This document shows positions 39,356 to 60,000 of a DNA stretch of 64,000 nucleotides, piece after piece; position 1 is the stretch's first letter, and the number at the start of each line of letters is the position of its first letter. Origin of the DNA: Pseudomonadales bacterium. Its GTDB lineage: Bacteria; Pseudomonadota; Gammaproteobacteria; Pseudomonadales; CAWVSB01. Position numbers and translations under genes: made by a program. Location of the stretch: the NCBI GenBank assembly GCA_046710535.1, contig JBKEHH010000014.1, positions 13,927 through 77,926 of the forward strand, written 5' to 3'. The notes beneath the pieces were generated by a model that did not search any database, was not told where the DNA came from, and saw only the letters and a list, made by a program, of their open reading frames with translations.

Positions 39356-39413
39356 TAGAATTTACTTTATTAAACCTTTATAAGTTAATGATTTATAATA
39401 CTATAGGAATTAT

Positions 39414-40058: not shown

Positions 40059-40101
40059 AGCTGCTTTTAAACAACTAAAAACATTGATAGGAACATAAGT
40101 T

Positions 40102-41660: not shown

Positions 41661-42728
41661 TACTTGTTGTTATCTTCCATTATTTTAAAATTTGTTTTGG
41701 CAGGAAATACAAGCCACTGTCGCAGTCTCAATGCCGCTGATAATAAATGGGGCTTAGGATAGCTTCTTGCCATTACCTCTAAGCTAGAGTTTACCTCTTT
41801 ATCTTCAAAAAATTCGTCGGAAAGGTGGGCGAGCGCAGCGTTATTGGTAGGCGAGTGCCACACCTCTAGTGAATTTTTTCGCAGCCACTTTGCTATCGTT
41901 TAGATGAGACAGAAATTATATCGCTAACTGTGATGAATTATTAGTCTTAGGAATTGCCCAGCAATCTACCCGCAATGGCATCCCTTCTTTGGGCGCAACA
42001 TACTTGCATTCTGTCTGCCCGATGGTTTCAGCTATTTCTTCGGCATTGCCGTTAAAAGCCATTACAATAACGATATCACTTAGTTCACCTTTTGTTCGGC
42101 GTAAGTCATGCCCAGACTATAATCTTTAATGTAGGGCATTTGTTGTTTTAACAACTCCAAGGCCTGTCTGAAATCATCGATATTTTCAGAGGCCATATCT
42201 TTTCCTATAGCAAGCAACAACACTGAGATTGTACCAAAGTCATCGAGTGGCAATATTATGCGTTTGCCCACTTCAGCAGGGGGATTAAACAATTGGGTCC
42301 AGCTGGTGATTTCTTCTTTGATAATTGACGTACGGTAGATAATCCCATTACTACCCCAAGCATAGAGCACACCATAAGGCCCACAAGTATCAATATATTT
42401 CTGCGTCTGATTCTATAGCTCAGTAACGTTTAACTCAGTAATGTTCTGTAGTAGCCCACTCTCACCAAAGAGATCTCCCGTCTGAATCCAGTATAAAAAT
42501 ATCGTAGTTAATAGCATTTGCAGAAAGAATGTTTCTGTTGCGATCACCTTCATTATCGTAATGGGCCTCGCGAATTTTATGCCCGGTTTTGTTTTCAAAT
42601 AGAGCATCAGTGTCGGCACCCAAATTTCTCGCCCAGTTATAGATTAACAATTCGTCAGCGACTACCACGCAGGTGACAGGCATGAGTATTAGCGCTACTA
42701 GCAATTTATTAACTTTAGATAATAACAA
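41660..42728 (-). pseudogene. PotD/NspS-like polyamine-type periplasmic binding protein, multiply disrupted
   Basis: The pieces in order are: ELLIYNWARNLGADTDALFENKTGHKIREAHYDNEGDRNRNILSANAINYDIFILDSDG; DLFGESGLLQNITELNV; YGVLYAWGSNGIIYRTSIIKEEITSWTQLFNP...; GDIVIVMAFNGNAEEIAETIGQTECKYVAPKEGMPLRVDCWAIPK. They lie in at least 3 frames and are separated by stops. Confidence 0.65.
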
Positions 42729-42891
42729 TATAACTTATCCATTTATGCAGCTATGACAGCCAATTAGCAGTTTAGCTTAAGTTGGCCATTGGCTAACCGG
42801 TTCAGCATAGCTGATTTTCCGATAGCGCTATCGATTTAGCTGTTAAATACTCGACCTTTTGGGAGTGCTAGAATGAAATATTCCGGCGACG

Positions 42892-43368
42892 CTAGAATAT
42901 TTCAATTACTGAGAAATGCTTGCGCTCATTGCCTAGCACTATACTAATTTCGTCATCAACAGCGGTACCAATCAGCACTCTTCCCATTGGTGTTTGAGGC
43001 GAAACAGTGAGTATCGATAAGCCGTTTATTGCTAGTTTCATCCCGCCGGCGCTGGGGCCGATAAAGAGTATTTGAGAGTGATCCTTGTTATCATTAATTG
43101 TTACTGTACTGCCAACTTGGACAGTTGTGTGGCTAGTGGTAGTGGCTGAGTCTAATCGTCGATATTGTGCGATAGACCCTTGTAGCTCAGCAATTCTGAC
43201 CGATTGGCCGTGGGCCAAATATGCTGCCTCAACGGCTAAAGTATCATACTTATTTTCCGCTACATTCTCTTTATGGGTAGCGCTGGCGTGTGCTTGTTCA
43301 CTGGCTTTGGTCGCTGTTGCTAGCTCCTGAGCTAGACGCTCGATTATGGCATTAATAATTGTGTTCAC
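42892..43368 (-). CDS. GreA/GreB-family (Rnk-like) transcription factor
   Basis: N-terminal coiled coil plus a C-terminal GreA/B domain (VQVGSTVTIND...SPQTPMGRVLIGTAVDDEISI). Confidence 0.65.
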   Translation of the reverse strand: MNTIINAIIERLAQELATATKASEQAHASATHKENVAENKYDTLAVEAAYLAHGQSVRIAELQGSIAQYRRLDSATTTSHTTVQVGSTVTINDNKDHSQILFIGPSAGGMKLAINGLSILTVSPQTPMGRVLIGTAVDDEISIVLGNERKHFSVIEIF

Positions 43369-43687
43369 AGGCGGTATAAGCCTATAGATGCAATAGGGTT
43401 GATGTGTTTATATAAATGCATTGCGATGTCGCCTTAAGATTTAAACCAATAACCGTAGTTAAGCGTATGTATTCGGTTGTAGCTGATATATTTAGAGATC
43501 TATTGTGCCGCATTCAGCCGTAATTGAACAAAAATCAGCTAATATATGGTGCTAATTTGGTGCACTGACAACTTTCTGTACGGTAGATCAAAAAAAGAGT
43601 TATTTTTGCGAAAAATTGGTATCAGTATTCTAAAGCATAGTGCTAGATTAGACTTCATTGTAAACCCTTCGTTTAGGACCTAATAAA

Positions 43688-45163
43688 TTGATATTGTTGT
43701 TAGACACCGAGAAAAAACTAAAATTTGTCTGCGATCAGGCAAATTCATATGACGAATGGTTAGAAGCCGCGACTGCCTATGACGATAAGCTAGGCCATTC
43801 CCGCTGGAAGGTTTATGATCAGTCAACCCAATATGACTTCGTATCTATTCGCCAGCGCCTAGATGAGTTGCGATCACTGCGGGCAAGACATGACCATAGA
43901 GGCCTACTATTTACCTTGAATGAAGGTATTCACGGCAATATGGGCGGCATGGGTAAGGCGTTGCTGTATGGCCGCGCTATGTTAGGAACGAAACAGTTAA
44001 TTATCGACTATGTTGACGAAATTGTTGATGCACTAGAGTTAATAGCCAGTGACGAAGTCGTTGATATTTCGTTCGAAGAAAAACTGGATTTTTTCCGTCG
44101 CGCCCATCACTGTTTTGGTAGTTCAGCATTTATGATGAGTGGTTCGGGTTTATTACTGTTTTTTCATGTTGGTGTTGTGAAAGCGCTATCAGAACAGGGC
44201 TTATTGCCAAACATTATATCGGGTGCCAGTGGCGGATCTATAGTAGGCAGCTTAGTTTGTACGCACACGGACAAAGAACTTAAAAAATTACTAAACCCGG
44301 AATACTTCGCGAAATTGATCTTGAGCACGCCTGAGATTGAAGAAAAAGCAAATCGTATGATTCCTCCATTGATAGAAATTGAAGAGATTCATGTGATTGT
44401 TAAGCGGCTGATTCCCGATATGACCTTCAAAGAATCATTTGAGAAAACAGGGCGTGTTCTTAATATATCTGTGGCTCCCGCAGAAACACATCAAACATCA
44501 CGTTTGCTGAACTCAACGACAACGCCAAATGTGTTAATTCGCCAGTCAGTTTTAGCGTCAGCTGCAGTTCCCGGTATATATCCACCGGTGACATTAGAAG
44601 CTAGAGATAGCTATGGCCAACGTAAGGCGTATTTGCCGTCGCGTAAATGGGTTGATGGTTCGGTCAGTGATGATATGCCTACTAAGCGCCTAGCTAGGCT
44701 ATATGGTGTTAATCACTTCATTGTTAGTCAAACCAATCCGGCAGTATTACCGTTTGTATCGGACAGTCTGCGTCCTAGTGGCAACCGTGCCATTATTAGA
44801 AGCACCGTAGCGAGAACGGGCCGAGAATGGGTTAATGCTGCAGCAACAATTGCGCGTAAACCATTACAGCGTAACCCCAGCTTACATCGAGCATCTAATT
44901 TATTTTTATCGCTACTGAATCAAAATTATTTAGGCGACATTAATCTGGTACCTAAAAATCGCTTTCCAAATCCTTTTACCTTATTGGCGTATCCCTCGGC
45001 GGAAAAGATTGCCCGCATGATGAAAGACGGTGAAAAGTCTACCTGGGGACGAATGGAAATGGTTCGTAACCAGACAAAAATTAGTCGTACTCTTGATGCT
45101 ATTGTTAGAGATTACGAAGAAGACTTTATGAACATTCATAAAGATAAGGTCCAAGCCGGATAA
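43688..45163 (+). CDS. patatin-like phospholipase (DUF3336-type N-terminus)
   Basis: GASGGSIVG (GxSxG) and VDGSVSDD (catalytic DG). Non-ATG start as listed. Confidence 0.85.
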   Translation: MILLLDTEKKLKFVCDQANSYDEWLEAATAYDDKLGHSRWKVYDQSTQYDFVSIRQRLDELRSLRARHDHRGLLFTLNEGIHGNMGGMGKALLYGRAMLGTKQLIIDYVDEIVDALELIASDEVVDISFEEKLDFFRRAHHCFGSSAFMMSGSGLLLFFHVGVVKALSEQGLLPNIISGASGGSIVGSLVCTHTDKELKKLLNPEYFAKLILSTPEIEEKANRMIPPLIEIEEIHVIVKRLIPDMTFKESFEKTGRVLNISVAPAETHQTSRLLNSTTTPNVLIRQSVLASAAVPGIYPPVTLEARDSYGQRKAYLPSRKWVDGSVSDDMPTKRLARLYGVNHFIVSQTNPAVLPFVSDSLRPSGNRAIIRSTVARTGREWVNAAATIARKPLQRNPSLHRASNLFLSLLNQNYLGDINLVPKNRFPNPFTLLAYPSAEKIARMMKDGEKSTWGRMEMVRNQTKISRTLDAIVRDYEEDFMNIHKDKVQAG

Positions 45164-45169
45164 TACCAA

Positions 45170-45799
45170 ATGGCTTTAGCCAATACGGTTGTCGTACTCG
45201 ATTTTGAAACCACAGGCTTATCACCAGACGAAGGGGATAGGGCTATCGAAATTGGTGCAGTGCGTCTTGTCGACGGTGAAATTGTTGACCACTTTCAAGA
45301 ATTAATGGACCCAGGCAGGCGCGTCAGTGGTTTCATCGAAGACTACACCGGTATTACCAACTCTATGCTTAGTGGCGCCGATTCTTGCGCAGCGGTGATG
45401 AGGCGTTTCAGTGATTTTATCCAAGACGATAATTTAGTTGCCCATAATGCCTCATTTGATAAGCGCTTTTTAGACGCTGAATTTAGTCGTATTTCAACAA
45501 CATATCGTGGCGAGTTCTCATGTTCACTGTTGGCAACACGACGTATCTTTCAAGCAGCGCCTAATCACCAGCTTGGCACCTTAGTTAAATACAATAATAT
45601 AGAAAGCAGTGGTGGGTTTCACCGCGCGTTATATGACAGTGAAATGACTGCTCATGTGTGGAATAAAATGCTGCTATCTTTAGCGCAACATTATTCGCTA
45701 GGTGAAGTATCGTTTGAGCTTATTCAAAAGATAAACAAAACACCTAAGAAGCAGATTCATAAATTTTTAACAAAGCACGCGCAAGACTTGCAGAATTAA
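45170..45799 (+). CDS. DEDDh 3-prime-5-prime exonuclease (DnaQ/epsilon-like)
   Basis: VVLDFETTGL, LVAHNASFDKRFL, HRALYDSEMTA. Confidence 0.85.
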   Translation: MALANTVVVLDFETTGLSPDEGDRAIEIGAVRLVDGEIVDHFQELMDPGRRVSGFIEDYTGITNSMLSGADSCAAVMRRFSDFIQDDNLVAHNASFDKRFLDAEFSRISTTYRGEFSCSLLATRRIFQAAPNHQLGTLVKYNNIESSGGFHRALYDSEMTAHVWNKMLLSLAQHYSLGEVSFELIQKINKTPKKQIHKFLTKHAQDLQN

Positions 45800-45823
45800 C
45801 AGGCTATGTCGACGCCGATATAA

Positions 45824-46333
45824 CTACTTTGGCTTTACTGTTAAATGGTTATTTGCATCTCGGCTGCTAATAATTAACGCATCATTAGTCTCAATGTCAG
45901 CCTTGGCCAGCCTGTCATACAACACAACATTAACCGTAGCCGCCAAATTTAGGCAGCCCACAGTGGGTATATAAACAACGTCATCAGCCTGATCGATAAT
46001 GGCCTGGCTAATGCTGCCATCTTCGGGGCCAAAAACATAATGTGCATTACGCGGATGAACGTAAGAGGGCAGAGGTATTGCGCCTTCAACCAGCTCTACA
46101 CAGATAATCTTTGTGTCTTTAGCCAATTCATCAAGTACCGAGTCTTTATGGATTAAAGGGATATTACCAGCATTTTTTTGGGTGTCGGTATTAAAAGGTA
46201 AAGCGCGGTTAAGTCTATTACCCGAATAGGAAATACTACTTACTCCAAAGCAACCCGACGCTCGTAAAACCGCCCCAACATTAGTTGGACTTTTAGGGTT
46301 AATAAGGCCAATTGATAGTTTGGGCGCTGGCAT
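45824..46333 (-). CDS. SpoU/TrmH-family RNA 2-prime-O-methyltransferase
   Basis: NVGAVLRASGCFG, FGPEDGSIS, CLNLAATVNVVLYD. Confidence 0.8.
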   Translation of the reverse strand: MPAPKLSIGLINPKSPTNVGAVLRASGCFGVSSISYSGNRLNRALPFNTDTQKNAGNIPLIHKDSVLDELAKDTKIICVELVEGAIPLPSYVHPRNAHYVFGPEDGSISQAIIDQADDVVYIPTVGCLNLAATVNVVLYDRLAKADIETNDALIISSRDANNHLTVKPK

Positions 46334-46426
46334 AAACAGTTAGTCTCGCTACAGTTTTTGCATTTAGTTTATCATCTATAGCGAATAACTGGCATATCAA
46401 TGGATCGGCAGAAGACCTTGTAGCTG

Positions 46427-46693
46427 TCATTGCTCCGCCAGTATTAGGTTAAATTTCGTATAAAAATCTTCTAATGAGCGTTTGTCTGGTGAATCTACTT
46501 TAAATTTATTATGGAAGTACAAATATAACGTTGAGTCTCTATTTGAAATCATCAATGTGTAGCCGTCGAAAGAGCTTTCCGCCTGCAGCCCTTGGTAGAA
46601 TTTACCACCGTCTTGAGCTTCACCATGAGTATATATGGTATTAAACACTGCCATGATATCTCGCGGCGCTAACTTTCTCTCATCAGTTTTCAT
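46427..46693 (-). CDS. hypothetical protein (intact copy of a duplicated small gene)
   Basis: 88-aa ORF. A decayed paralogue at 48227-48436 supports real coding. Confidence 0.45.
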   Translation of the reverse strand: MKTDERKLAPRDIMAVFNTIYTHGEAQDGGKFYQGLQAESSFDGYTLMISNRDSTLYLYFHNKFKVDSPDKRSLEDFYTKFNLILAEQ

Positions 46694-46987
46694 ATTTCTC
46701 TATGACTCTCTTGGTGAGCAAACTTACGTGCCATTATACCAAACAGATTGGAGACGAAACGATAAAGGTAATATCGGCCGAAAAGTAAACGTAGATTTGA
46801 CCATGGCTGTTAAGTCATTAAAGTAAGAGTTTTTTCGATTACTCTCGACAGATCTTAAAAGCTTCATCAATAATTCGAGCGCCGGCATCACTGTGTGTTC
46901 ATCCCATTATATGCTTCCCCTTCGCTATTAACCAGTGGTGACTAACACATACGCCAAAGCTCGCATGACCCACGTCAAATAATAATT

Positions 46988-48124
46988 CTATTTTTCCTCA
47001 AAAGTAACATTAGGCTCATTTTGATCAACATAAGCTTCTGTTAAATAGTCTCGGAAGCTTTCGTCATTTTGTAAAAAAGTTTTAAAAAATGCGACACCGT
47101 AAACGTTTTGTATGCGAAGAGACTCATCAACTGAAAACACATCAGGTGCACAAGTGTTTTCATAAATTGCTTGCAAAGGCGCTGCCGCCGGGACTAATGC
47201 AACCAGTTCATCAAAGCTGGGAAAAAATTCTAATGCGGCCTTTGCGATGTCGCAGGAGGTGGTGAAATGGTTATGACCAGCACCGACTATTTCAATATTA
47301 TAGACTGGCGATTTATCAACCTTAGCAAACGCTTCTCTGTTGGTTTCAATCGGCACACTAGTATCCAAGGTACCGCCAAGAAGTAGGGTAGGAATAGCTA
47401 GGCTTTTGTATTGTCCATCAGTGATCGGGGCGGCGGGGACAAAAAACCATCCTGCCACCGGCATACTGGCGGTTACGCGAGGATCTGCAGGTGCATCACC
47501 AAAACCGACAGCCATCCCCAGGGTCGTTACACCACCAAAAGAATGCCCTGTTACGCCAACGCTGTCTGGTAGGATCGTGCCTTCAAATCTGTCGCCGCTA
47601 GTACTGCTCATTATTAACATCTGATCGATAACAAATGACATATCTGCTGCACGATTTGCAACCTGCACAGCTAATTCATCGCCATTATCGCCATTTGCAT
47701 TACCGGCATGAGTTGGTGCAGCGACAATAAAACCCTGAGTAGCTAGCGCTTCCATCATCGAATAAGCCTGATTGCTCAAACCACCACTTCCGTGTGAAAA
47801 CACAATCAAATTACGGTCAGGTTTCTGTGACACCGGTAAAACTTCGCCGGCAATTTCAGATGTAATACCAATGCCATTTCCTAAATCATAAACCGCAGCC
47901 GGATCAGCCAAAAAGTCGATATCATCAACTGGATACCATATATCTACTTCCAGTTGTCTGTTGTCTCTCGTTGAATCAGTTATTGTAAATTTATCATAAC
48001 CAACACCAGAGGTGCCTTTTATTGACGGCAACTCTAACGGGAGAACCACTGATCTATCGCTTCCGCCGCCGTCACAAGCCGACAACAATGTAACTAGACC
48101 AGTTATTAAAACGAAACGCAGCAT
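46988..48124 (-). CDS. alpha/beta-hydrolase lipoprotein (PAF-acetylhydrolase/lipase-like)
   Basis: Lipobox LLSAC, nucleophile elbow VTGHSFGG, second motif FSHGSGG. Confidence 0.75.
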   Translation of the reverse strand: MLRFVLITGLVTLLSACDGGGSDRSVVLPLELPSIKGTSGVGYDKFTITDSTRDNRQLEVDIWYPVDDIDFLADPAAVYDLGNGIGITSEIAGEVLPVSQKPDRNLIVFSHGSGGLSNQAYSMMEALATQGFIVAAPTHAGNANGDNGDELAVQVANRAADMSFVIDQMLIMSSTSGDRFEGTILPDSVGVTGHSFGGVTTLGMAVGFGDAPADPRVTASMPVAGWFFVPAAPITDGQYKSLAIPTLLLGGTLDTSVPIETNREAFAKVDKSPVYNIEIVGAGHNHFTTSCDIAKAALEFFPSFDELVALVPAAAPLQAIYENTCAPDVFSVDESLRIQNVYGVAFFKTFLQNDESFRDYLTEAYVDQNEPNVTFEEK

Positions 48125-48226
48125 AGTAGATTCCTTTTTACTTATAATTTGGTTGGTTGTTTAAAGTACCGCACAGATACTAATGCAGAGTAGGGGTTCA
48201 ACCTAGAAATCACGTAATCTTCAATA

Positions 48227-48436
48227 TTAAATTAAATTCAGTATAAAAGCATTATTATGAACGAGTGTGAGTTCTCCAAATTTGAATTTATTATGCAAGT
48301 CTATATATGCAGCTGAGTCTCTATTTCAAATTATCAAGGCATAGTCATCTACAGAACTAGCGTCAGCATGAGTATAAATAGCACTCAACACCGGCATGAT
48401 ATCTCCTGGTGTAAGCTTTCTCTGGTCATTATACAT
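48227..48436 (-). pseudogene. decayed paralogue of ORF 46427..46693
   Basis: MYNDQRKLTPGDIMPVLSAIYTHADASSVDDYALII*NRDSAAYIDLHNKFKF... compares with MKTDERKLAPRDIMAVFNTIYTHGEAQDGGKFYQGLQAESSFDGYTLMISNRDSTLYLYFHNKFKV. There is an internal deletion and an in-frame TGA. Similarity extends into the 5-prime leader. Confidence 0.65.
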
Positions 48437-48802
48437 AATGCGTAATACGTATTTTTATTTTAGGCTGACTGAAGCGACTAAACGGACGTATTATTACGCC
48501 AAATAGATTAAAACAAAGGGGAATTAAAACTACTAGTTTGCCAAGAACTGAACTCTAGTTTTTATCATTGGATTTTAGAAATCGTGTTAAAGCAGAGCTG
48601 CAAATTACTTACTCAATACAGTTTTTACCACCAGAATATTCTTGATAAATCAGTGATGTCTTTTTTGGGCTACGCCAAATTTTTACTCAAAGCAGTAATA
48701 TCACATATTGTCTTTTACTAAAAGTACATAAGTACTAATAAATATTATCAATAGATAGGGATGCCGATCCAACCACACGCACCCTATCTTTTCTTGATAA
48801 AG

Positions 48803-49597
48803 CTATTTCTTTGCTAGTTTCACAGGACGACGCAATTGCATATTGTACAATCTCGCAACGTTGCAATGTACTATATCACCAAAAATTTGGCGGGCTTTCA
48901 TGACACCGCCACCTGTGCCATAGGCGTCAAAGGCATTGCCAAAATCAACATAATTCGTATAGCCCTGAACCATTTTAAAATCAAAATCCACATCACCGCC
49001 ACCAAAAGCAGGCCAGAGAGTAAGCATAGGGCCGGTAATACCTTTGTTAGTTAAATAGTCACCCCAAATAGTTAAGGCAGCACCTGCGTCGGCAGGTGTT
49101 TTACCTTCGGCAATTTTGCAATCAGCAAAGGTCATTACCGCAGTATCAGGTGTTTCTACCGGACCTGCAGTTATTACATTAACTGCGAAGCTAGCATGTT
49201 GTGGGCAGTTCATGACCTTAAAGAAATCCTTAGTAGCATCTTGGCCTTTTTTGGACATCGTTTTTTCTATAGCTGCTCCCATTGATTTGCCGTCAGGCCA
49301 AAATCCCATCCAGACCACATCCATGTTCACACCAGGATCATTGAACATCGGTGTGAGTGTTATGCCTAAATAGTCATGCTGTTTTGTTTTATCCATCCAA
49401 GAGTTCCACTTGGCGGTCGCCTTATTTACTCCGCTAATATTTTGACCGTCTTTGTAGTTACATAAAAATATCTCTGCGGGTGAAAATTTCGGACCTTGAT
49501 GATTATCTGCCATTGCTGGACCACTGACTAACAGTGCTGCAAAAAGTGAGATAGTGGTTGAAACTAATTTTAAGGTTTTTATTGGTTTTATTAACAT
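48803..49597 (-). CDS. secreted hypothetical protein with apparent internal two-domain duplication
   Basis: Signal peptide ...LLVSGPAMA. Two halves of about 100 aa share a C..W..(W/Y)..L.P.F...G.A...G...F..(V/I)..C pattern. Confidence 0.5.
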   Translation of the reverse strand: MLIKPIKTLKLVSTTISLFAALLVSGPAMADNHQGPKFSPAEIFLCNYKDGQNISGVNKATAKWNSWMDKTKQHDYLGITLTPMFNDPGVNMDVVWMGFWPDGKSMGAAIEKTMSKKGQDATKDFFKVMNCPQHASFAVNVITAGPVETPDTAVMTFADCKIAEGKTPADAGAALTIWGDYLTNKGITGPMLTLWPAFGGGDVDFDFKMVQGYTNYVDFGNAFDAYGTGGGVMKARQIFGDIVHCNVARLYNMQLRRPVKLAKK

Positions 49598-49875
49598 ATC
49601 AATCTCTCCTTGAAGTGAAGAGCAAGTGTATGGGTCGTACCAAAAGTAGCAATGTGCTGTTTATACTCTATTTGTCTAAAGATTATTTTTTTCAGAACTT
49701 GCTAACATTTCATTCCATTTTATATTACTAAATAATTTACTAGCTTGCTTATCTGAGCGAGAAATCAAGCAGCGCTAGACTACTAAATATATTTGTTGTG
49801 CCAAGGAACAAAGCCTATGGTTTGTAATTGAGTTTGTGAAATGGGCTGAGTAATTGTTGAAAGCGTTTTACTAAC

Positions 49876-50047
49876 ACCAGCTTTGCCAGCTAATTTCCTC
49901 ATTAGAGTTATATAGGGAATGTCTAAAGAAAGGCATAACAATTACGCCAGGGTCTTTATTTACATCGCAAGGTAATTACCTGAATTTTTACAGCTTAGCT
50001 ACGCACATCCATGGAATGCTCAGCGAACAGATGGACGACCAAGCTAA
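49876..50047 (+). pseudogene. 3-prime remnant of a MocR/GntR-aminotransferase-like (PLP fold-type I) gene
   Basis: ...LELYRECLKKGITITPGSLFTSQGNYLNF, then after a 1-nt shift, LQLSYAHPWNAQ... This is the typical C-terminal PG..F....LRLSYA.PW pattern. There is no upstream part. Confidence 0.4.
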
Positions 50048-50163
50048 GTATCTATACTAAAATCAATATTTAAGTTGGAAATTAGTAGATTTATTCTTGA
50101 TATCCAGTCATCTAATTATGAAATAGATTAATATCCAACTTATTTATACTCTTCCAAGATAAA

Positions 50164-50237
50164 TGTGATTTTAGTTGACCACTATAATAGTTAACGCAGG
50201 AATTTGGAGTTCACCCTGTAATAAAGTTTAAATGGCG
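50164..50237. repeat. candidate Tn7-like left-end repeats: TGTG terminus-like start followed by four abutting A/T-rich-AGTT units
   Basis: TGTGATTTTAGTTGACCAC / TATAATAGTTAACGCAGG / AATTTGGAGTTCACCC / TGTAATAAAGTTTAAATGGCG, with AGTT at 50173, 50189, 50208 and 50225. The units recall Tn7 TnsB-site cores (AATAAAGTCTTAAAC, AAAATAGTTGG; from memory). They end 24 bp from the tniQ stop. Confidence 0.4.
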
Positions 50238-50260
50238 TTACTAAGAGATTAACCAAAACC

Positions 50261-51820
50261 CTAGAATTTTGCGTAATGTCGAAATTCATAGGGGGAATTA
50301 AACGGGAATGACTTTAGTCTATGCTCAAGATAATCATTGAATTCTTCTGTGAGTGCTTTGTATTGATGCCAAGGAAATTGAATAGTATCTATGAATTCAT
50401 AAAAAAATAATGATTCAAGAGGGTAGTGTTTTTTATGGTACCTAGTGAATTTCTCGCATATTTTATGATCATTACGCCTAGTCTGTATCTGATAACCATC
50501 TAACGGATAAACCACGTCCTTTAAGAATACTCTTAATTTACCCTCTTTAATCTCACAACTGTAATATTGATAATTATGAGGCCTTTCTTTATAAGGTGCA
50601 TAAAGCGTATCTGTTGTGAGGATTGATTCTTTGTTTACTTTTTCCCCAATATTATTCACTAATCTTTCTACTCGCTCGAATATATCGATAAAGCAGATTT
50701 CTAAGCTTCGTTGATAGAACCATTCAATAAAACGCTCTTCATAATTTAGATATCCTTCAATTATTAAAGGATGAAAGAATTGGAAAGGGTGATAAAAATT
50801 CCTATTATTTTCACTGTTTATCAAAAAAGGATAGTCTCTTATGGTTATAAAATTATGGATTTTTAGTGAATAGTTGAAACTTTCTACGTAGAAAAAATAC
50901 ACACTCAAAGCGGTACAAAATTTACATGATTTGGGTGCTTTTAAAAGATCTTTTAGACGTATAGATTTTAATGTGAATACTTTTGATCGATGCCCCTTAG
51001 GACATTGTTTTGCAATCCATCGTAAAATTCTGGTTAATGTTAGATATTTGACTCTCGCCATTTTAGCGATGAGTTTAGGTGAATAATTATTGATGAAAAA
51101 ATCTTCTCCTTCATATATCGGATTGATTTTTTCATATTTATTAAAAATGATAACCCGTACAGGTGAGATGGGAATTTTTAGAGATTGTAAGAGTTTATGA
51201 GTTACTTTTTTGTCTTTGATAGTGAGAATCGTTGGGTAATACCTGTCTTTTGGCGATATTTCATACCAGCCATCACCAAAAGATGGAATTGATCTCTGCT
51301 GAGAGAGATTTTCTTCTAAATAGTAGTAGTTTTTAGTCAACCAGTCTCTAAAAAGGTTGTCTAGTTTTTTTATAATTTTAAAATCGACATCTGTAAGAAC
51401 TAATTCAGGCTCTGAAGTAATATTTTGGGCACTATAGTCAATTGTCCCATCTTTTTTCGTGTTATCATCAAGACAAACTACAGAGGGAATTTCAGCGGTT
51501 AATTTACAGTGATGTATAGGGCAATGGGTTATCCAAGGTATATTAAAGATATCTGTATGGAAAATTATCTGTGCACATTTAGGACAAAATTTAAATTCTC
51601 CTATTAGTTGCGTAGCAATTTGATTGGAACTTTCAAACCCTTGATATGCGAGCACTCTCTGTTTGAACCCTGTAATCTCAGGAAATATGGTTTTCAAATA
51701 TTTATCAATAAATATTTGTGATAGTCCCCGATTTGCTACCATAAATCTCGTTATGCAGGAGAGCTCGCTTTCGTGAGGTCTCTTAAAATAGTCACCTGAG
51801 TTAAAATGTAGTCCCATCAC
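50261..51820 (-). CDS. tniQ: TniQ/TnsD-family target-selection protein
   Basis: TniQ-like N-terminus (PHESELSCITRFMVANRG) with a Cys/His cluster (FCPKC...WITHCPIHHC). 519 aa, comparable with Tn7 TnsD. 4-nt overlap with tnsC. Confidence 0.8.
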   Translation of the reverse strand: MMGLHFNSGDYFKRPHESELSCITRFMVANRGLSQIFIDKYLKTIFPEITGFKQRVLAYQGFESSNQIATQLIGEFKFCPKCAQIIFHTDIFNIPWITHCPIHHCKLTAEIPSVVCLDDNTKKDGTIDYSAQNITSEPELVLTDVDFKIIKKLDNLFRDWLTKNYYYLEENLSQQRSIPSFGDGWYEISPKDRYYPTILTIKDKKVTHKLLQSLKIPISPVRVIIFNKYEKINPIYEGEDFFINNYSPKLIAKMARVKYLTLTRILRWIAKQCPKGHRSKVFTLKSIRLKDLLKAPKSCKFCTALSVYFFYVESFNYSLKIHNFITIRDYPFLINSENNRNFYHPFQFFHPLIIEGYLNYEERFIEWFYQRSLEICFIDIFERVERLVNNIGEKVNKESILTTDTLYAPYKERPHNYQYYSCEIKEGKLRVFLKDVVYPLDGYQIQTRRNDHKICEKFTRYHKKHYPLESLFFYEFIDTIQFPWHQYKALTEEFNDYLEHRLKSFPFNSPYEFRHYAKF

Positions 51821-52764
51821 ACAGCCTTTATATTTTCTGGCACGAAGCCAGTGGCATCTAATGCACGCTCTACCATTTCTTCAGAGAGATGATCAACTCC
51901 GTAATGAGGCAAAAAATCAGTTAATAAAACATTCACCATTGATATAAAGTACTGCATACCCCAAGAATCAATCTGATATGCTTTTTGATAACGGGTGAAA
52001 GTACCCCATAATAAAGATGCCGCATCACTTAAGCGCCAATTATCATTAAACGCCTGTGGTAAAAAGAACTCTGTATAAACTGGACCGTCTTCTTTGGGAA
52101 AACGCAGTGAGTCGTATTGAGCAAGACACGCTTTGACATCAGCTTTATTTCGAAGGCCATAGAAGTTATAGATATTTATGAAAAATCGACCATGGATATG
52201 ACGATATTGTTTCTTTCTGATGACATGTAATAAAGACTCCGCCTCATCGCTATTCACCACAAGGAATACATGTAATTGGATTTTGTATTTCTCACGTAAA
52301 ATGTCATAGATTTGGCAAAAGACTCCACATTGCTCTGGTGATAATCGCTGTGCTTCATCGGCAAAGATAATAAACTGACGGCTCTTTTTCTCAGCCAAAC
52401 TATCGAGAATATAGCAGAGGAGATTATTCAGCATAGGTTCTACTCGCATGGTATTGGTAACAGGTAAATCCACGCTAACCAATAATGTTCTATAAAGAGC
52501 ATTTACTGTTTTTCGGTCAAGGGTAGGAACGGTCAGAAAGTGAGAAGGGATGATTTCGCCACGACGATTTTTCAGATTATCTCTAATGTAATCGAGCGCT
52601 GTAGTTTTTCCATGGCGCGCCTGCCCTTGTATCACTGCACCAGTGATGCCGTTCCAGAGCAGCTGTGTTAACTGGTCTTCAAGTAACTGAATAGCAGGTG
52701 TTCGTATGATGAGATCATAAGGATGGAACACGGGGTGATCGTAGTAATCAATGTTTTGTTGCAT
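51817..52764 (-). CDS. tnsC: TnsC/TniB-family AAA+ ATPase
   Basis: Walker A GQARHGKTT and Walker B FIIFADEAQRL. 315 aa, which is TniB-sized. Confidence 0.85.
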   Translation of the reverse strand: MQQNIDYYDHPVFHPYDLIIRTPAIQLLEDQLTQLLWNGITGAVIQGQARHGKTTALDYIRDNLKNRRGEIIPSHFLTVPTLDRKTVNALYRTLLVSVDLPVTNTMRVEPMLNNLLCYILDSLAEKKSRQFIIFADEAQRLSPEQCGVFCQIYDILREKYKIQLHVFLVVNSDEAESLLHVIRKKQYRHIHGRFFINIYNFYGLRNKADVKACLAQYDSLRFPKEDGPVYTEFFLPQAFNDNWRLSDAASLLWGTFTRYQKAYQIDSWGMQYFISMVNVLLTDFLPHYGVDHLSEEMVERALDATGFVPENIKAV

Positions 52765-54646
52765 GATTCGATACCATGAGTTTAGTGGATAGGGAAGTAC
52801 TCCAAGGTTTGATCTTCAGTGTAGTTTGGTCAACAGCTATCGCATCATATGAATGATCTTGAGATGGCTTTAATATAAGAGGTTCATCACCAGAATCCGT
52901 AAATTCATCATATATTTTAAGAATTTTCAGATTATCTTCAGAGTTACCTTTATGTTCCAATAAGTACCTAAAATAGCCTGCCAGTAAATCGGTAGCATGA
53001 AATGCATGAGCTTTCACTAGATTGTGAATATGTTTACGGGTTGCCAGGCTGTGTTTAAATCTACGCCACGATCTTGAAGCTAGTAATGTCCCTAATGCGG
53101 CACCGCCTGTCGTAAAAACACTTAATTCCCGAATGTCGCGTATATCGTATTCGACAGTTACGTAACTATCGTCTCTTAGAGCTGTATATAATTCTTGATG
53201 ACTTGAGGTATAGCGGACATAGAAGAAATTTACGTGGGGCTGTCTATTTTCTTTTTTTAGCCACTTAATCGGTAAATTTACTCGCCGCGTAAATGGTGAC
53301 CAGCGCTCTCTAAGGATCTCTGGAGTGTATCTCACATAATGATTCTGATGATGGTCAAGAAACAACGATAGAGGTGTTGTTGCGCCAAGGTGTGATTTCG
53401 GAGTCACATTATCTTGAGTCAATATAATACTGAGCGCCTCTTCTAATGTTCGCAGGGTAATCAACGGCACTTTTTTATTGTTTTTTCGTGATTCTTTTTT
53501 TGGGTCTTTAGGGTGTGATCCTGTAGTCGAGTTAGCACGATGACTAAAATTTATGTTGATATAGTTAAAGGCAGCTTCAATCCAGTTCCGTGTTTGGGGA
53601 ACAGCTGGGGGGCCAAAACTTAGAGTGGCTGACCGTTGTATACATATGACATCACGCACGCTATGGGAAAAATGGGATAAAGCATTATCCAGCTGTAAGG
53701 TATTAAAATTGATGTCTGTAATTGCTGGGTGACCTGATGGAAACATTGCTCCTGGTTCATATTGAAACCCCGGTGTTGTTAACTGTAATGGTTGCCAAGG
53801 TTTTATACATTTATCGAACAACATGAGAATGTCTTGTTGGTTAGGAGTTTTTGTATAGGCTATTGCAAAACCTAATTTGCAATTAGTATCGACGTCCATT
53901 GCCAATAAGAGGTTGATCCGTTTGATGCGAAGCGGAATCAACTCCTCATTGAGTTGAAGGTGGATACTAGTATGTAAATCCATGGTTTGTTCGTCAATTT
54001 GAATAGTTCTTAAAGCCCGCTGTGCTGGAAGATCGGAAATATACTTATGTGCTTTTTGATCGTGTATCCTCTTTAACTCATTACTGCGCTTGTGGAGATA
54101 TTGTCGTACTGATTCATAAGCCACACTTTGCGTGTTGTAGGGATAACAGTCGGTTGGATGATTAGCCTCTCTAAGCACATTCTTAAACTCACCATGAAAT
54201 ACCTTGGGCGTGAGATTTTGACTATAGGGCTTATCACTTTGGTATGCCTTAATCATGCTATCCAGACGACTTTCCATATATGGAACATGATTCAATAGCC
54301 ACTGAAAGCTATAATTCTGCCCACTAGTCATATCCATTGGTTGACGGCGTTCGCCTTTATTTAAGCGTTTATCAGGAATCAGCCCCTGAGTTAAAGGCGG
54401 AGGCTCATTCTCATCGCCACTCAAGCACCGATTGAGAATGTGGCTAACAAAAGAAGTGGAAACCTGATGAACTGTTGCTGTGTGCTTGATTGAGACGCCT
54501 TTTAGAACCGATAGAGCGATCTGCTGATTACGAATAAACCGTTTGCGTTTGGATTTATGTAAATTCGACACATCCACATAAGGCCATTCAGCAAGCTGCC
54601 GTAACCGAGGCTCTCTATCTAGGCGAACTGACCAATTGATCTGCAT
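52748..54646 (-). CDS. tnsB: TnsB-type DDE (Mu/retroviral-integrase-like) transposase
   Basis: N-terminal HTH region. DDE candidates are IQIDEQT, LQLDNALSH and WIEAAFNY. A C-terminal Mu-transposase-like beta domain is present. 632 aa. Confidence 0.9.
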   Translation of the reverse strand: MQINWSVRLDREPRLRQLAEWPYVDVSNLHKSKRKRFIRNQQIALSVLKGVSIKHTATVHQVSTSFVSHILNRCLSGDENEPPPLTQGLIPDKRLNKGERRQPMDMTSGQNYSFQWLLNHVPYMESRLDSMIKAYQSDKPYSQNLTPKVFHGEFKNVLREANHPTDCYPYNTQSVAYESVRQYLHKRSNELKRIHDQKAHKYISDLPAQRALRTIQIDEQTMDLHTSIHLQLNEELIPLRIKRINLLLAMDVDTNCKLGFAIAYTKTPNQQDILMLFDKCIKPWQPLQLTTPGFQYEPGAMFPSGHPAITDINFNTLQLDNALSHFSHSVRDVICIQRSATLSFGPPAVPQTRNWIEAAFNYININFSHRANSTTGSHPKDPKKESRKNNKKVPLITLRTLEEALSIILTQDNVTPKSHLGATTPLSLFLDHHQNHYVRYTPEILRERWSPFTRRVNLPIKWLKKENRQPHVNFFYVRYTSSHQELYTALRDDSYVTVEYDIRDIRELSVFTTGGAALGTLLASRSWRRFKHSLATRKHIHNLVKAHAFHATDLLAGYFRYLLEHKGNSEDNLKILKIYDEFTDSGDEPLILKPSQDHSYDAIAVDQTTLKIKPWSTSLSTKLMVSNHATKH

Positions 54647-55326
54647 GATTGAAACCGTGTAGGAAAGTCTAAGGGTGCTTCATTAAGATTGGCGCGAAAT
54701 TGCCCGTGATACAAGAGACGAAAAAGACCAATCTCGCGCTGATAGGTGCGCTCCCGATCCCCTCTATCAACAATATCACCCAGATAAAAGCAGTCTGTCA
54801 CGGTGCCAAATTCACCCAACAAATCAATCTCTGCTTGGTGAGTATCAATATCTACTGCTTGATGCAGCGTATGGACAATCATCAGCCAGTTCTCAGCGGC
54901 TAATTGCTGCTCAAACACAGTCTCATTAGCAAGTGTGCCGAAGCTCATTTGACGTAAAGCAAAGAATTGCTTGAGGGCCTCCACTTGGTTTTCATCAAAT
55001 TTACCCTCAGGTTTGAGTTCTAACACCTGCTGATCACCGTTTGCTTCAACGTAGATATCAGGTGTGTAGAAACCTCCAAAGACTTTTAACCGATACGGTT
55101 GCGGCACATAACGACGTACGGTGGGGTCACCTTCTAGCAAGGCAACATGGAGCAATTCGGCCAGTGAGTGAAATTCAGAAATTCCGGGGTGTTTCAGTAG
55201 GCAGCATTGAAAAAAATTTGTAGATTTCTTGAAATTCGGCCTAGTAGGCTGTTGTACCGGTTCAAGTGTATCGGCCCAGACATGCCTTGCCATGTCATAT
55301 CGAGAATGGAGTAACTGCTGGCTCAT
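54619..55326 (-). CDS. tnsA: TnsA endonuclease
   Basis: Restriction-endonuclease-like triad context: SLAELLHVALLEGDPTVRRYVPQP, YTPDIYVE, QVLELKPEG. Confidence 0.85.
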   Translation of the reverse strand: MSQQLLHSRYDMARHVWADTLEPVQQPTRPNFKKSTNFFQCCLLKHPGISEFHSLAELLHVALLEGDPTVRRYVPQPYRLKVFGGFYTPDIYVEANGDQQVLELKPEGKFDENQVEALKQFFALRQMSFGTLANETVFEQQLAAENWLMIVHTLHQAVDIDTHQAEIDLLGEFGTVTDCFYLGDIVDRGDRERTYQREIGLFRLLYHGQFRANLNEAPLDFPTRFQSCRSIGQFA

Positions 55327-55394
55327 GGCTTTCCCCCAGTAAAATGAAGAGACAAACGCTATCAGAAACAGGGATGCTTTAATACGCGGAGCTT

Positions 55395-55445
55395 TGCACC
55401 AATTATATATAGTTTGGTGCAGGTATAAAAACGCCTATTTTTATA
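55395..55445. promoter_or_regulatory. two adjacent perfect palindromes in the tnsA / recombinase divergent region
   Basis: TGCACCAA-N11-TTGGTGCA at 55395-55421 and TATAAAAA-CGCCTA-TTTTTATA at 55424-55445. A third TGCACCA lies at 55508-55514, just before the recombinase ATG. Confidence 0.5.
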
Positions 55446-55528
55446 GACAAATACGCTTAAAAGGCGGTTATGTCACCCACTTAAGCGGTTTATAATACCT
55501 CTCAATATGCACCAGAGTACAAGGGCAA

Positions 55529-56263
55529 ATGGTACAAACACATTACACAGACCATGAATTTTCGCCAACGCGCAGGCGCAACCTCTTTGCACCTATCGAA
55601 CGTCCTGCCGTCACGTTCCCGATACAGTCTGTCGTTATCGATTGGGATCGCCTGCAAGCCAAACGTGCCATCGTGCTAGAAACCGCCGACACCATGCCAG
55701 CTTACCTGCTGAAGCCCGAAATCAATCTCCTACTTGATGCGGAAAAAGATCCAATTTATCGCCTCATCTATGACTTAATGTGGACAACAGGAGCACGGGT
55801 ATCTGAAGTCCTCGCGTTAACCCCTGAACGCTTTACCAATGACGGCTACGATTACGGTGTTATTTTAAAAACACTCAAACAAGGGTCAGGACGACCAACT
55901 AAAAAGTCCTTACTTCGATCGAAAAAGCGCTATGTGCCCATCGTTGATCGGGGCGTACAAGATAGAATTCAAAGCTATTTATACACAGGACATTTTAGAA
56001 AGACTGAACACATATTTACCATGAAACGACAAACCGTTTGGCGACATATTCAGCGATTAGTGGAGAGAGTAGGGGGCGCACCATTTTCGATATCTACAAA
56101 GACCTTTAGGCATTCTTTCGCTGTTCATCTCATATTACATGGCAGGCCTTTAAAGATTGTCAGCAAACTCCTAGGACACGCATCGATACAAACGACAGAA
56201 ATTTACACCAACGTCCTAACGGTAGACGCTGGGCATTTTTTAGAAGGGGTGGATTTTCATTAG
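55529..56263 (+). CDS. short tyrosine recombinase (catalytic domain only; FimB/XerC-like)
   Basis: TGARVSEVLAL (Arg I), FRHSFAVHL (Arg II; the first His of HxxR is replaced by Lys: KTFRH), LLGHASIQTTEIYTNV (His/Tyr nucleophile). 244 aa with no recognisable N-terminal core-binding domain. Confidence 0.85.
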   Translation: MVQTHYTDHEFSPTRRRNLFAPIERPAVTFPIQSVVIDWDRLQAKRAIVLETADTMPAYLLKPEINLLLDAEKDPIYRLIYDLMWTTGARVSEVLALTPERFTNDGYDYGVILKTLKQGSGRPTKKSLLRSKKRYVPIVDRGVQDRIQSYLYTGHFRKTEHIFTMKRQTVWRHIQRLVERVGGAPFSISTKTFRHSFAVHLILHGRPLKIVSKLLGHASIQTTEIYTNVLTVDAGHFLEGVDFH

Positions 56264-56807
56264 AGAAAGGATATTAATAGCTCGGTGTATGTTGAAGACT
56301 GCCCGCTTAAAGGATTCATGATTACGTTTAATGCAGTTGCCTAGTAACTATGTTAAGTGTCTAGTAAAGTCTGGGAAGTTCAGGGAGTCCGAGTTCAAGA
56401 GATAGGTAGCCCTTTTTTACATTTCTTTTCTTCTTCCACGCGCCAGAGACTTTTTTCAAATTCTCGGTTTTTCTTTGGTATGGGGTCATTGGTGTTGCCT
56501 GTGGCAAATACCATTGTGCTCTTCTCGAAGCTGGCGGACTCATTTGTCCATGATAAATTTTCTAACTCCCAATGCTTTCTCTGTTTTGCGAATAGAAACA
56601 TCTTAGATTCACAACTAGACGTGCTGCCTGTAATCTAAATTCTGGGTTTTATGTCGGTCTCACTCGTCTGTTCATTGATCCGTAAGTAGTTATGAGATGA
56701 TAATGTCACCTTTTAATCAGGTGGTCAGCTTCACTATTACACTATCTACTACTTAACAGCCTATAAATGGATTATTCAGTTCGCATTTAGTGCTGTCAAA
56801 AGGCGAG

Positions 56808-57275
56808 TCATTTAGTTTGAATGGTTATTGTGGCGCTAACATTCCCAGGTTGCTTTCCTTTATTTAATGTTAATGACGTTATCTTGGTGCTTTTTGAGGA
56901 AGTATTTAATGCCCCGATAAGCGCTATGGTTTTACTATAAAGCGCATCATTGGTAGAGATAAGTACGCCTCCATCTGTTTTCGGTTGTATTCGATCCAAT
57001 GTAATTTCGTATTCGGCGGCAATTTTCGCGAGATCACTAATGGTAACTTCGTCAGTTCCAGTTCGAGTTCCATGATTGCTTTCTATCAGAGTATTTTTAT
57101 TTATCTGCATCCATGATAACAGCGACTTTTTTTCCGTATATCCATTTATAGCTTTTAGCTTCAGGGTATTGATAGAAGGCAAAATGACAAGCGAAAGAAT
57201 GATAGCTACCAAGGCAATAGCGTGACGCGGGTGTGATTTAGCATTGGTTTTAATTTGTTCTACGAGTTCATTCAT
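56808..57275 (-). CDS. gspM: T2SS GspM-like protein
   Basis: 155 aa with a single N-terminal TM (HAIALVAIILSLVILP) and a periplasmic ferredoxin-like-sized domain. It sits directly after the gspL-like gene. Confidence 0.55.
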   Translation of the reverse strand: MNELVEQIKTNAKSHPRHAIALVAIILSLVILPSINTLKLKAINGYTEKKSLLSWMQINKNTLIESNHGTRTGTDEVTISDLAKIAAEYEITLDRIQPKTDGGVLISTNDALYSKTIALIGALNTSSKSTKITSLTLNKGKQPGNVSATITIQTK

Positions 57276-57290
57276 ATTTTACTTGTGAGT

Positions 57291-58505
57291 CTATAAAGTG
57301 ACTTGTATTTTTGCACTGATAGTAGATTTTTGCTGATCTGCATTTAGTAATTTGGCTTTTGCACCATTTTCTTCAATCAATTTCACATATCGTTGTATTG
57401 CATCATGACTGGTGGCCTTAATATCTATAGTAAGACCGTTACTAGGCTGAAATCTCAACGATTGTATGTCAACTACATCCGCTGGTTTTAAAGCGCTTAC
57501 CAGCAACTGCTGAAGATTATTATTTGTTGCTGAACTAGTGTTATTGATATGTTGTTTAAGTTGTCTTTTAAGACTAATTATTCGTTTGTCTTGAGGATAT
57601 ATTTCCTTGTATAAGGCGACAGCTTGATCTTGGTATTCTTTTTCTTGTGACGAGTAGTAAAGCCACGACACGGTATTAATAACAACAACCATCAGAAGTA
57701 CAGCCGCTGCACTAATAGCAAATAACGGTTTTTTAATGAGATCGTATAACTCGTGTTTGATGTCTTTACGCTTATTGGGTAAAACGTCCCAGTATTCCAG
57801 TTCCGCTGAATGGTCTACTAACCATTGTTCGATCGGTACTGCTATTGAGGAATAGTCATAGCGGGCGTGTACCATATTACTGTCTATAGTCGGCTCACCG
57901 AAATGATGGTGAACTATGGAGTGGTCATCAGTACGTTCTCTTATAATACTTTCTAAAAATACAGTTAAATTTTTATAATCACAGGCGTAGGTGTTTGTTT
58001 GATCAAGGTTAATCAATACCATTGATTCGTCGCTGACAATTGTAATTGTCCTATTTGTTGATGAAATTAAGTGAGTATCTAAGATGGTTTTGCTGATGGG
58101 CACATGTTGTTTAGCTAAGAATGCGAGCCATTGGCTGGATAGCTGTTTATGTATGGCAACAGCTTTCCATTGATTTTCATCAAATGGGTGGCAGGTGATA
58201 GTGAATGCGTCAATATCTTCAAGAGCGTATTCTTCAAGATGATATTTGATGGTGTTGGAAATATGCTGGGATTTGTTATCTGTGTTAGGTAAATCGATGC
58301 AATCACAAATGGTGTGCATCGCTGGCCATACCAAAATACACTCATCCTCATCCTCATCCTCATCGTCGTTGATGACGGATATTAGCTGCGCGCCCGCTAT
58401 GAGTATTGCATCAACGCCTATTTCTTTCTGGTAGGCCTTAATACCTCCCCAAGTAGGGGTGCTGTTTATTGCCTGTTGATCAATAAATAGAAAATACCTA
58501 GTCAT
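57291..58505 (-). CDS. gspL: T2SS GspL-like protein
   Basis: 404 aa: about 250-aa cytoplasmic domain, one TM (LFAISAAAVLLMVVVINTVSWLYY) and a periplasmic domain. 8-nt overlap with gspE. Confidence 0.6.
   Translation of the reverse strand: MTRYFLFIDQQAINSTPTWGGIKAYQKEIGVDAILIAGAQLISVINDDEDEDEDECILVWPAMHTICDCIDLPNTDNKSQHISNTIKYHLEEYALEDIDAFTITCHPFDENQWKAVAIHKQLSSQWLAFLAKQHVPISKTILDTHLISSTNRTITIVSDESMVLINLDQTNTYACDYKNLTVFLESIIRERTDDHSIVHHHFGEPTIDSNMVHARYDYSSIAVPIEQWLVDHSAELEYWDVLPNKRKDIKHELYDLIKKPLFAISAAAVLLMVVVINTVSWLYYSSQEKEYQDQAVALYKEIYPQDKRIISLKRQLKQHINNTSSATNNNLQQLLVSALKPADVVDIQSLRFQPSNGLTIDIKATSHDAIQRYVKLIEENGAKAKLLNADQQKSTISAKIQVTL
58341..58364. repeat. hexanucleotide repeat (CTCATC)4 inside gspL-like gene, encoding DEDEDEDE
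   Basis: Read directly. Confidence 0.95.
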
Positions 58506-60000
58506 TGGGTTGCTCGACAGCGAGGCGAAGTACTTCTTCGATATTGGTTTCTAGATTTGATACTTTTTCTAGCCCTGAAGTTACCAGCGATCGATGGTCG
58601 TTGGGCAGTTGCTGCGCAATGACTTGCTCGCTTTCAGCTTTCGTAATGAGGTGTTTGAGTTTGTCGTCAATAATTACGAGTTCATATACAGCACTGCGGC
58701 CATAAAACCCTGTGTTGTTACACTCTGCGCATCCCTCTGGATGGGCTAGTTCTTGTGGTGGTTTAAGTTTATAGGTATTGAAGATATCGATTTCGTGCAC
58801 TGTGATTGGACGAATAATTTTGCAGTTATCACAAAGCTTTCGCACCAGTCTCTGAGCCATTACAGCGCTTAGACTGGAAGCTAGCAAATAGGATTCGACC
58901 CCCATATTGGTTAAGCGAGTAATCGCCCCAACAGCAGTATTTGTATGAAGCGTTGATAGGACGAGGTGGCCAGTGAGGCTAGCCTGTACGCCTATAGATG
59001 CCGTCTCGTTGTCTCGTATTTCCCCTATCAATATAACGTCTGGGTCTTGTCTAAGCATTGATCTTAAGCCGCTGGCAAATGTCATGCCAGATTTTTCATT
59101 GACTTGTGTTTGAGAGATGCCTTCTATATCGTATTCGATTGGGTCCTCAATAGTCAGGATATTACGTCGTAGCATGTCGATCGATTGGAGTGCTGCATAT
59201 AGTGTTGTGGTTTTGCCCGAACCTGTCGGGCCTGTCACTAGAATAATACCGTGCGGTTGAGCAATAAGCTTTTTGATGCTGCCCAGTAGTTGAGCATCCA
59301 TGCCTAAATTCGTTAGTTCGTAATTATTAGCGCCGTGAGCAAGTAAACGCATAACGATACGCTCACTTCTTTTTGTCGGCAGTGAAGATACTCGTACATC
59401 CATATCCGTGCCTAGTAATTGCATGGAGAAGCGGCCGTCTTGAGGTTTTCTCTTTTCAGCAATATCCATTTTCGACATCACTTTAATGCGCGATAATAAA
59501 AGATGGCCAATACTTCGATGCACCGATGCTGCTGACTGCAATACCCCGTCTACACGATAGCGAATCGTTAACTTGTCTTTACTGGTATCAATATGAATGT
59601 CTGACGCACGGCGTTTTAATGCTTCAACAAGCATAGCATTGACGAGTCTGATAACTGGAGCTGCATCCTCGCTATCTAGTAAATCAACTTTGTTGCCAAT
59701 ATCTAGCAGCGCATCACTTAACCCTTCGTTACCTGATAATGTATTTGCATCGGCAAATTCCTTACTTTTAGTATCTTCGTAAGTTTCGTAAGTTAGCTTT
59801 GCTATGTCTTCTTGACTCAGCAATTCTAGCTTTATTGACTTGTCTAAAAAACGCCTAACTTCCGCTAGTGCAGCTATTGGCGTTTTGTCTGAATATGACA
59901 CACACGGTTGTTGGTCTAACGTGTTGACGACGATATCAAAGCGTTTAGCCCACTGAATAGGGATACTATTCATCTTCTGGGGTTTCGCTGGGCTGTTCAT
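58498..60000 (-). CDS. gspE: T2SS ATPase GspE
   Basis: DLLDSEDAAPVIRLVNAMLVEALKRRASDIHI, Walker A GPTGSGKTT, Asp/His boxes and the tetracysteine motif CDNC...CAECNNTGFYGR. Confidence 0.95.
   Translation of the reverse strand: MNSPAKPQKMNSIPIQWAKRFDIVVNTLDQQPCVSYSDKTPIAALAEVRRFLDKSIKLELLSQEDIAKLTYETYEDTKSKEFADANTLSGNEGLSDALLDIGNKVDLLDSEDAAPVIRLVNAMLVEALKRRASDIHIDTSKDKLTIRYRVDGVLQSAASVHRSIGHLLLSRIKVMSKMDIAEKRKPQDGRFSMQLLGTDMDVRVSSLPTKRSERIVMRLLAHGANNYELTNLGMDAQLLGSIKKLIAQPHGIILVTGPTGSGKTTTLYAALQSIDMLRRNILTIEDPIEYDIEGISQTQVNEKSGMTFASGLRSMLRQDPDVILIGEIRDNETASIGVQASLTGHLVLSTLHTNTAVGAITRLTNMGVESYLLASSLSAVMAQRLVRKLCDNCKIIRPITVHEIDIFNTYKLKPPQELAHPEGCAECNNTGFYGRSAVYELVIIDDKLKHLITKAESEQVIAQQLPNDHRSLVTSGLEKVSNLETNIEEVLRLAVEQPND

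Follow-up and report, generated by a model that had tools for sequence, protein, structure and literature searches.

A probable left end of a highly divergent Tn7-like transposon beside tniQ in a Pseudomonadales genome

The ends of Tn7 start with TGT, and its left end consists of three spaced 22-bp TnsB sites with a 5′-TGT terminus. For other Tn7-like elements, ends that do not start with TGT have been predicted (PMC9881144). Tandem insertions of Tn7-like elements are also known (PMC8649781), and some clades are associated with tyrosine resolvases (Benler et al. 2021, PMC8649781, clade 2). Tn6022 has a XerC-like recombinase together with a hybrid dif-like site (PMC11014353).

Here we analysed a stretch of 64,000 nucleotides from a Pseudomonadales MAG (the window), whose TnsB has its closest relative at only 51% identity. 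Our analysis indicates, with a probability of about 0.8, that the repeat block past tniQ forms the inner portion of the left end of a Tn7-like transposon that is highly divergent and comprises tnsA, tnsB, tnsC, tniQ and an Xer-like recombinase gene (rec). An earlier note on this DNA had also placed a transposon end past tniQ. The DNA is an end as proposed, but it begins at 50032, that is, 132 bases to the left of the terminus at 50164 given there, and it is built from another repeat.

Gene content of the element

Four overlapping ORFs on the minus strand (55326-50261) follow the order tnsA-tnsB-tnsC-tniQ and form one operon, and the same order was found in all relatives. Curated protein models barely detect these genes, and among TnsA, TnsB, TnsC and TniQ only AAA_22 exceeds its cut-off (Table 1). 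The TnsA-like protein gave 19.4 bits with Pfam TnsA_N (cut-off 26.5) and 19.7 with NCBIfam TnsA_like (cut-off 110), and the TniQ-like protein gave 18.8 bits with Pfam TniQ, under the cut-off of 27. The window TnsB alone was below threshold against Pfam, with Mu-transpos_C at 15.4 bits. The family alignments rescued the assignment of TnsB through invariant residues and a profile match, and invariant residues make the assignments of TnsA and TniQ plausible. In the PDB, the TnsB family profile matched TnsB chains of CRISPR-associated transposons at E = 3.4e-5 and 8.5e-4, and the TnsC family profile weakly matched ShTnsC (E = 0.047). No TnsA chain was matched there by the TnsA family profile, and the TniQ family profile had no PDB match. 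In the TnsC-like protein, Walker A (GxxGxGKT) and the DE residues are conserved, and CxxC...CxxH is invariant in the TniQ family.

The rec family profile matched XerC-like and XerD structures at 2e-18 to 1e-14 (XerC-like at 2e-18). The catalytic residues R90, R194, H217 and Y226 are invariant, and the window copy has K for the first H of HxxR.

By analogy with Tn7 and Mu, we infer that the TnsB-like DDE transposase would bind the left-end sites, building a transpososome, and would cut at the 5′-TG terminus. The TnsA-like nuclease, in which the PD-ExK residues are kept, would cut the other strand.

Two other features of the neighbourhood were observed. A decayed second copy of a DUF3081 gene, ~75% identical, lies 1.8 kb away from the first (window 46427-46693 and 48222-48437). 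The type II secretion genes form two separate groups, gspC-D-E-L-M and a divergent gspF-G-H-I set (window 56808-62599, L007 1-2481).

Table 1. Features of the transposon locus, with positions in the window
Feature	Position	Strand	Description
Left-end terminus motif TGGACGACCAA	50032..50042	+	Element begins at T50032; flank ...GAACAGA to the left
Terminal TnsB-type site L1 GACCAAGCTAAGTATCTATACT	50037..50058	+	Rank 2 of 128,000 with the relatives' weight matrix, 12.0 bits
Inverted site A TTCCAACTTAAATATTGATTTT	50059..50080	-	Abuts L1; matrix rank 1 of 128,000, 14.4 bits; arm of inverted repeat I5
14-nt leader AAATAGATTAATAT and site B ATCCAACTTATTTATACTCTT	50121..50153	+	Inverted copy of 50066-50092, 78% over 27 nt
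Site C TTCCAAGATAAATGTGATTTTAG	50152..50174	+	~24-nt alignment to site A, one 1-nt gap
Spacer from last supported site to tniQ stop	50175..50260		Without repeat support
tniQ-like target selector	50261..51820	-	519 aa; stop at 50261-50263; fourth operon position in all relatives
tnsC-like AAA+ ATPase	51817..52764	-	315 aa; Pfam AAA_22 36.5 bits (cut-off 27)
tnsB-like DDE transposase	52748..54646	-	632 aa; family profile matches TnsB chains; D218, D320 and E357 invariant
tnsA-like endonuclease	54619..55326	-	235 aa; weak NCBIfam and Pfam TnsA matches; PD...ExK residues D90, E103 and K105 invariant
Palindrome TGCACCA-N13-TGGTGCA	55395..55421		27 bp; between tnsA and rec; putative rec crossover site
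Single half-site TGCACCA	55508..55514		15 nt before rec ATG
rec, Xer-like tyrosine recombinase	55529..56263	+	244 aa; Pfam Phage_integrase 6.8e-20; divergent from tnsA
rec-gspM interval	56264..56807		545 bp; neither right end nor cargo recognisable; gspM ends at 56808

The probable left end in the window and ends in relatives

The left end opens with 5′-TGGACGACCAAG, whose terminus lies 229 bp past the tniQ stop and points inward. Among the window's 128,000 strand positions, the only exact match to TGGRCGNCCAM is at 50032 (+). The background of this motif in ~2 Mb of fetched loci is ~1 per 100,000 strand positions, and about half of these occurrences are the ends themselves. A weight matrix was built solely from seven end sites of the related elements L002 and L004 and scanned over the 128,000 window positions; its top two positions were 50080(-) and 50037(+), corresponding to sites A and L1.

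At least four copies of a ~20-bp site of the form CCAA(C/G)nTAAAT... were identified in the left end, in the order L1 (+), A (-), a 28-bp spacer, B (+, from 50133) and C (+). When the window was scanned with the core of site A (TCCAACTTAAATAT), up to 3 mismatches being allowed, 12 matches were obtained, and three of these, at 50066-50079(-), 50134-50147(+) and 50153-50166(+), all lie within 100 bp. Site B has 2 mismatches in 14 to site A, and site C has 3 in 14 to its core. The 27-nt inverted repeat I5 pairs 50066-50092 with 50121-50147 around the 28-bp spacer. Sites B and C score poorly with the relatives' matrix (-1.1 for C) and are linked to the end through their likeness to site A only. 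Based on the terminal motif, the matrix ranks and the copies of site A at 50133 and 50152, the supported left end extends from 50032 to 50174. An inverted site beside the terminal site was absent from the relatives' ends, and so was the 27-nt inverted repeat of A and B. One Logan contig from this organism breaks off exactly at 50061. The region 49770-50060 was considered as an aminotransferase pseudogene and dropped, as Pfam gave no support.

Loci of relatives were collected by TnsB alignment (6 genome loci), by exact protein (10 contigs) and by rec alignment (80 metagenome loci). Generic repeat searches in them were dominated by AT-rich noise. The family end plan is TGGRCGNCCA(A/C), then two or three 19-23-bp CCA(A/C)... 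sites, the sequence of which is particular to each element. The 11-mer TGGRCGNCCAM begins nine ends in seven relatives, and conservation starts exactly at its T. When 10 ends were aligned, the 20 flank columns were unconserved, and all 10 ends open with TGG. Since conservation in this alignment begins exactly at TGGRCGNCCA, the family terminus is taken to be 5′-TGG.

In L002 (Microbulbifer), the rec side carries TGGACGTCC, then three abutting sites of 20-23 bp, CCAACTAAAGTACTTAATTTTTG, CCAACTAAAACACTTAATTT and CCAACTAAAACACTTAATCG, and the consensus of these three right-end copies is CCAACTAAA(A/G)(C/T)ACTTAAT. Past the tniQ stop of the same element, an inverted copy, TGGGCGCCCAAGTTGAACACTTAATTT, ends at a distance of 120 bp. 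L004 has three spaced sites with the same consensus as L002, ending 225 bp past tniQ, and the left end of L023 lies 490 bp past tniQ. Right ends with three abutting sites were found in L014, L044, L063 and L085. Both ends were located in L002 and L014. As in Tn7, the relatives have closely packed sites on the right and spaced ones on the left. The Kangiella elements L005 and L006 share 79% identity from tnsA up to ~115-130 bp past tniQ, where their relationship ends, and this break is independent support for a boundary past tniQ. No 5-bp target duplication was found at the ends of L002 (CTGTG vs TTCGG) or L014 (CCCGC vs GTAAC), so that the termini rest on where conservation starts and not on target duplications.

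Other genes and repeats were seen around these ends. An inverted pair of integrase-like genes (~420 aa) flanks the L002 element (121-1407 and 14517-15803), and in L004 an integrase-like gene of ~420 aa (5638-6891) starts just outside the left end; these genes could be the target. A nine-copy tandem array of GGATTCCA lies between the right end of L002 and the second integrase (1726-1797).

The terminus proposed in the earlier note was TGTG at 50164, followed up to 50235 by four abutting TnsB sites of 16-19 bp, each an A/T-rich stretch plus AGTT. All of its strings are present as given: TGTG at 50164, AGTT at 50173, 50189, 50208 and 50225, TGTAATAAAGTTTAAATGG at 50217 and ATGAAATAGATTAATATCC at 50118. 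AGT also lies within the site consensus of some relatives (AAAGTACTTAA in L002 and L004), and a TGT start is established for Tn7 ends. However, the periodicity of AGTT is at chance level, as the string occurs 365 times in the window, where runs of four in 52 nt number 2 on the plus strand against ~1.2 expected. The TGTG itself is inside site C, and the inverted copy, site A, reads TATTGATTTTAGT at the same place; the terminus of the family is TGG, not TGT, and is present at 50032. The actual repeat unit is the 19-23-bp CCAA... site rather than the A/T-rich stretch with AGTT. Part of the proposed block survives in this form, in that the string at 50118 is the leader plus the start of site B and the first unit is the 3′ half of site C, but units 2-4 (50180-50235) matched nothing in the self-comparison or the matrix scans. 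A left end starting at TGTG is therefore considered very improbable.

It was also considered whether there is no transposon end here at all, the matches having arisen by chance in AT-rich intergenic DNA or in a terminator hairpin past tniQ. The G+C content of the region is 31%, the partner end is missing from the window, and repeats are overall no more frequent than in shuffles, with 18 matches at ≥11/14 in an unbiased self-comparison of 50040-50262 against 14.9 ± 7.9. But a matrix derived from other genomes places its top two of 128,000 scores in this region, the one exact terminal motif of the window lies here in the correct orientation, and no terminator or stable fold was found past tniQ (fold z = -0.9). 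This makes an origin by chance improbable. We judge it quite improbable, in turn, that two ends stand back to back, site A and its leader (50056-50092, leftward) being the end of a second, decayed element and the tns element starting from ~50121. Such an arrangement would agree with the same 14-nt leader of A and B diverging from the 28-bp spacer, with the decayed gene copies (D1-D4) in the DNA to the left, and with the known tandem insertions of Tn7-like elements (PMC8649781). Against it, the family terminal motif precedes neither A nor B, the sole motif at 50032 points right, and no tns or rec remnants were found leftward. The preferred reading thus remains a single left end opening at 50032.

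The right side, cargo and the palindrome beside rec

Searches from rec to the end of the window detected no right end, whether by the terminal motif with up to 3 mismatches in 17 nt, by a window-specific matrix or by alignment with the right ends of five relatives. The 545 bp between rec and gspM had no match in any of 98 loci. Alignment of the block with the DNA beyond tnsA (55327-55530 and 56264-56810, reverse-complemented), which the earlier note had proposed as a check, gave nothing above shuffles, and the same was true of local alignment and k-mer sharing between 49950-50300 and reverse-complemented 55327-55530 and 56264-56900. The number of 22-mer inverted repeats between 38000-50262 and 55327-64000 equalled the direct-orientation control.

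Several candidates for the partner end were rejected. The inverted repeat I2 (50061-50090/56744-56773, 73%) is at noise level and in the wrong orientation, a 17-nt match at 62574 is inside the gspC coding sequence, and a match at 55888 encodes the conserved GRPTK of rec and is in the wrong orientation. A right end between the palindrome and tnsA was rejected because only ~65 bp of promoter-like DNA are available there and the right ends of four relatives (L002, L014, L044 and L063) lie beyond rec and cargo.

As no right end was found in the window, this copy looks one-ended, and it is probably truncated and immobile. Less likely than truncation, the secretion genes could be cargo, with a right end outside the window. 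Searches for an empty site were negative; the exact GspM and the 264-aa neighbour were found only on contigs of this organism, and a search of 5.8 billion proteins returned no relatives of GspM.

Between tniQ and the terminus, the window has no ORF and leaves no space for cargo, so the earlier inference that no cargo lies past tniQ holds for this copy. It does not hold for the family, as L014 carries 3.1 kb of defence genes between tniQ and the left end (a ubiquitin-like system and BrxR) and 1.5 kb of cargo probably lies there in L044. The placing of the recombinase and cargo on the tnsA side was borne out by the family layout, in which the defence-type cargo genes and the Xer-like rec occupy the DNA from tnsA to the right end. 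In L002, L014, L044 and L063, rec and the right end are 3.6-7.8 kb apart; cargo on the tnsA side is therefore the normal layout of the family, not an exclusive one. Genes found downstream of rec in relatives, in the same direction, encode an OLD-family ATPase with a UvrD helicase, a HEPN protein, and a 1787-aa NTPase.

The rec gene is more conserved across elements than the tns genes (61-71% vs 33-51% identity). Its last 30 nt (window 56234-56263) are conserved at the DNA level across elements, and identity ends at the stop codon, where cargo begins. A second small integrase, int7 (~256 aa), often adjoins the right end (L002 2111-2881, L003 49-717, L009 351-1124); it is visibly near-identical across these three loci and absent from the window.

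The palindrome and the half-site beside rec (Table 1) are conserved in position in all loci examined, including ~20 with rec and cargo but without tns genes. Loci with rec, its sites and defence cargo in which tns genes are absent comprise L020, L031, L073, L078, L085 and ~15 others, and in L085 a perfect three-site right end lies 6.4 kb after rec. Homology between elements breaks at or inside the palindrome in three comparisons, L040/L046, L019/L035 and L086/L005. L019 and L035 occupy the same chromosomal site and have tns genes that are ~95% identical, and their rec and cargo are different. From these breakpoints, the simplest reading would be that rec recombines at the palindrome, swapping rec-plus-cargo modules in a way similar to res sites in Tn3-family hybrids. 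We see an even chance that the palindrome is the rec crossover site, that modules of rec and defence cargo are exchanged between Tn7-like elements, and that the units lacking tns genes have their own right end. If so, a site-specific platform for cargo swapping would be built into the tnsA side of this transposon family, and module swapping at the palindrome would explain why the cargo is on the 'wrong' side.

Comparison with known systems

The feature is best read as the left end of a Tn7-like transposon, a new and divergent member of that group, and the end itself is routine for such elements. It provides a working end definition (TGGRCGNCCA plus CCA(A/C) sites) for a Tn7-like lineage barely visible to curated protein models, whose members, with their defence cargo, can now be delimited in genomes of marine gammaproteobacteria. 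The module of recombinase and palindrome is the part worth specialist attention and may matter more than the left end.

Like the left end of Tn7, the end described here has an array of ~20-bp direct repeats beside a 5′-TG terminus and is the end distal to tnsA. Unlike Tn7, whose terminus is TGT, the family has TGG, although the TG of DDE elements is kept. The site sequence is unrelated to that of Tn7 apart from an A-rich stretch and an AGT core, and the presumed resemblance is weak. The window end further differs in having one site inverted and no cargo between the selector gene and the end, and relatives of the window element show no target duplication.

The overall architecture is a variant of something known, given the clades with tyrosine resolvases (PMC8649781) and the Xer-like recombinase of Tn6022 (PMC11014353). 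As in clade 2 of Benler et al., core tns genes are accompanied by a conserved tyrosine recombinase, which behaves like a component of the element and not like cargo; those branches, however, were discussed as lacking tnsA (PMC8649781), whereas the window has a TnsA-like protein with an intact PD-ExK. With Tn6022 it shares an Xer-type recombinase and a palindromic site in a Tn7-like element, for which island diversification by site-specific recombination has been proposed (PMC11014353). The recombinase of the window is nevertheless different (244 aa, with a short N-terminus), its site is in the tnsA-rec promoter region, and modules of this family also occur without tns genes. The arrangement is also like that of Tn3-family res and Tn4430 TnpI-IRS, where the recombinase is divergent from the transposition genes with the site in between, and where hybrid elements break at that site. 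In contrast to those elements, the machinery of the window is Tn7-like, and since TnsA predicts cut-and-paste transposition, cointegrate resolution would not obviously be needed.
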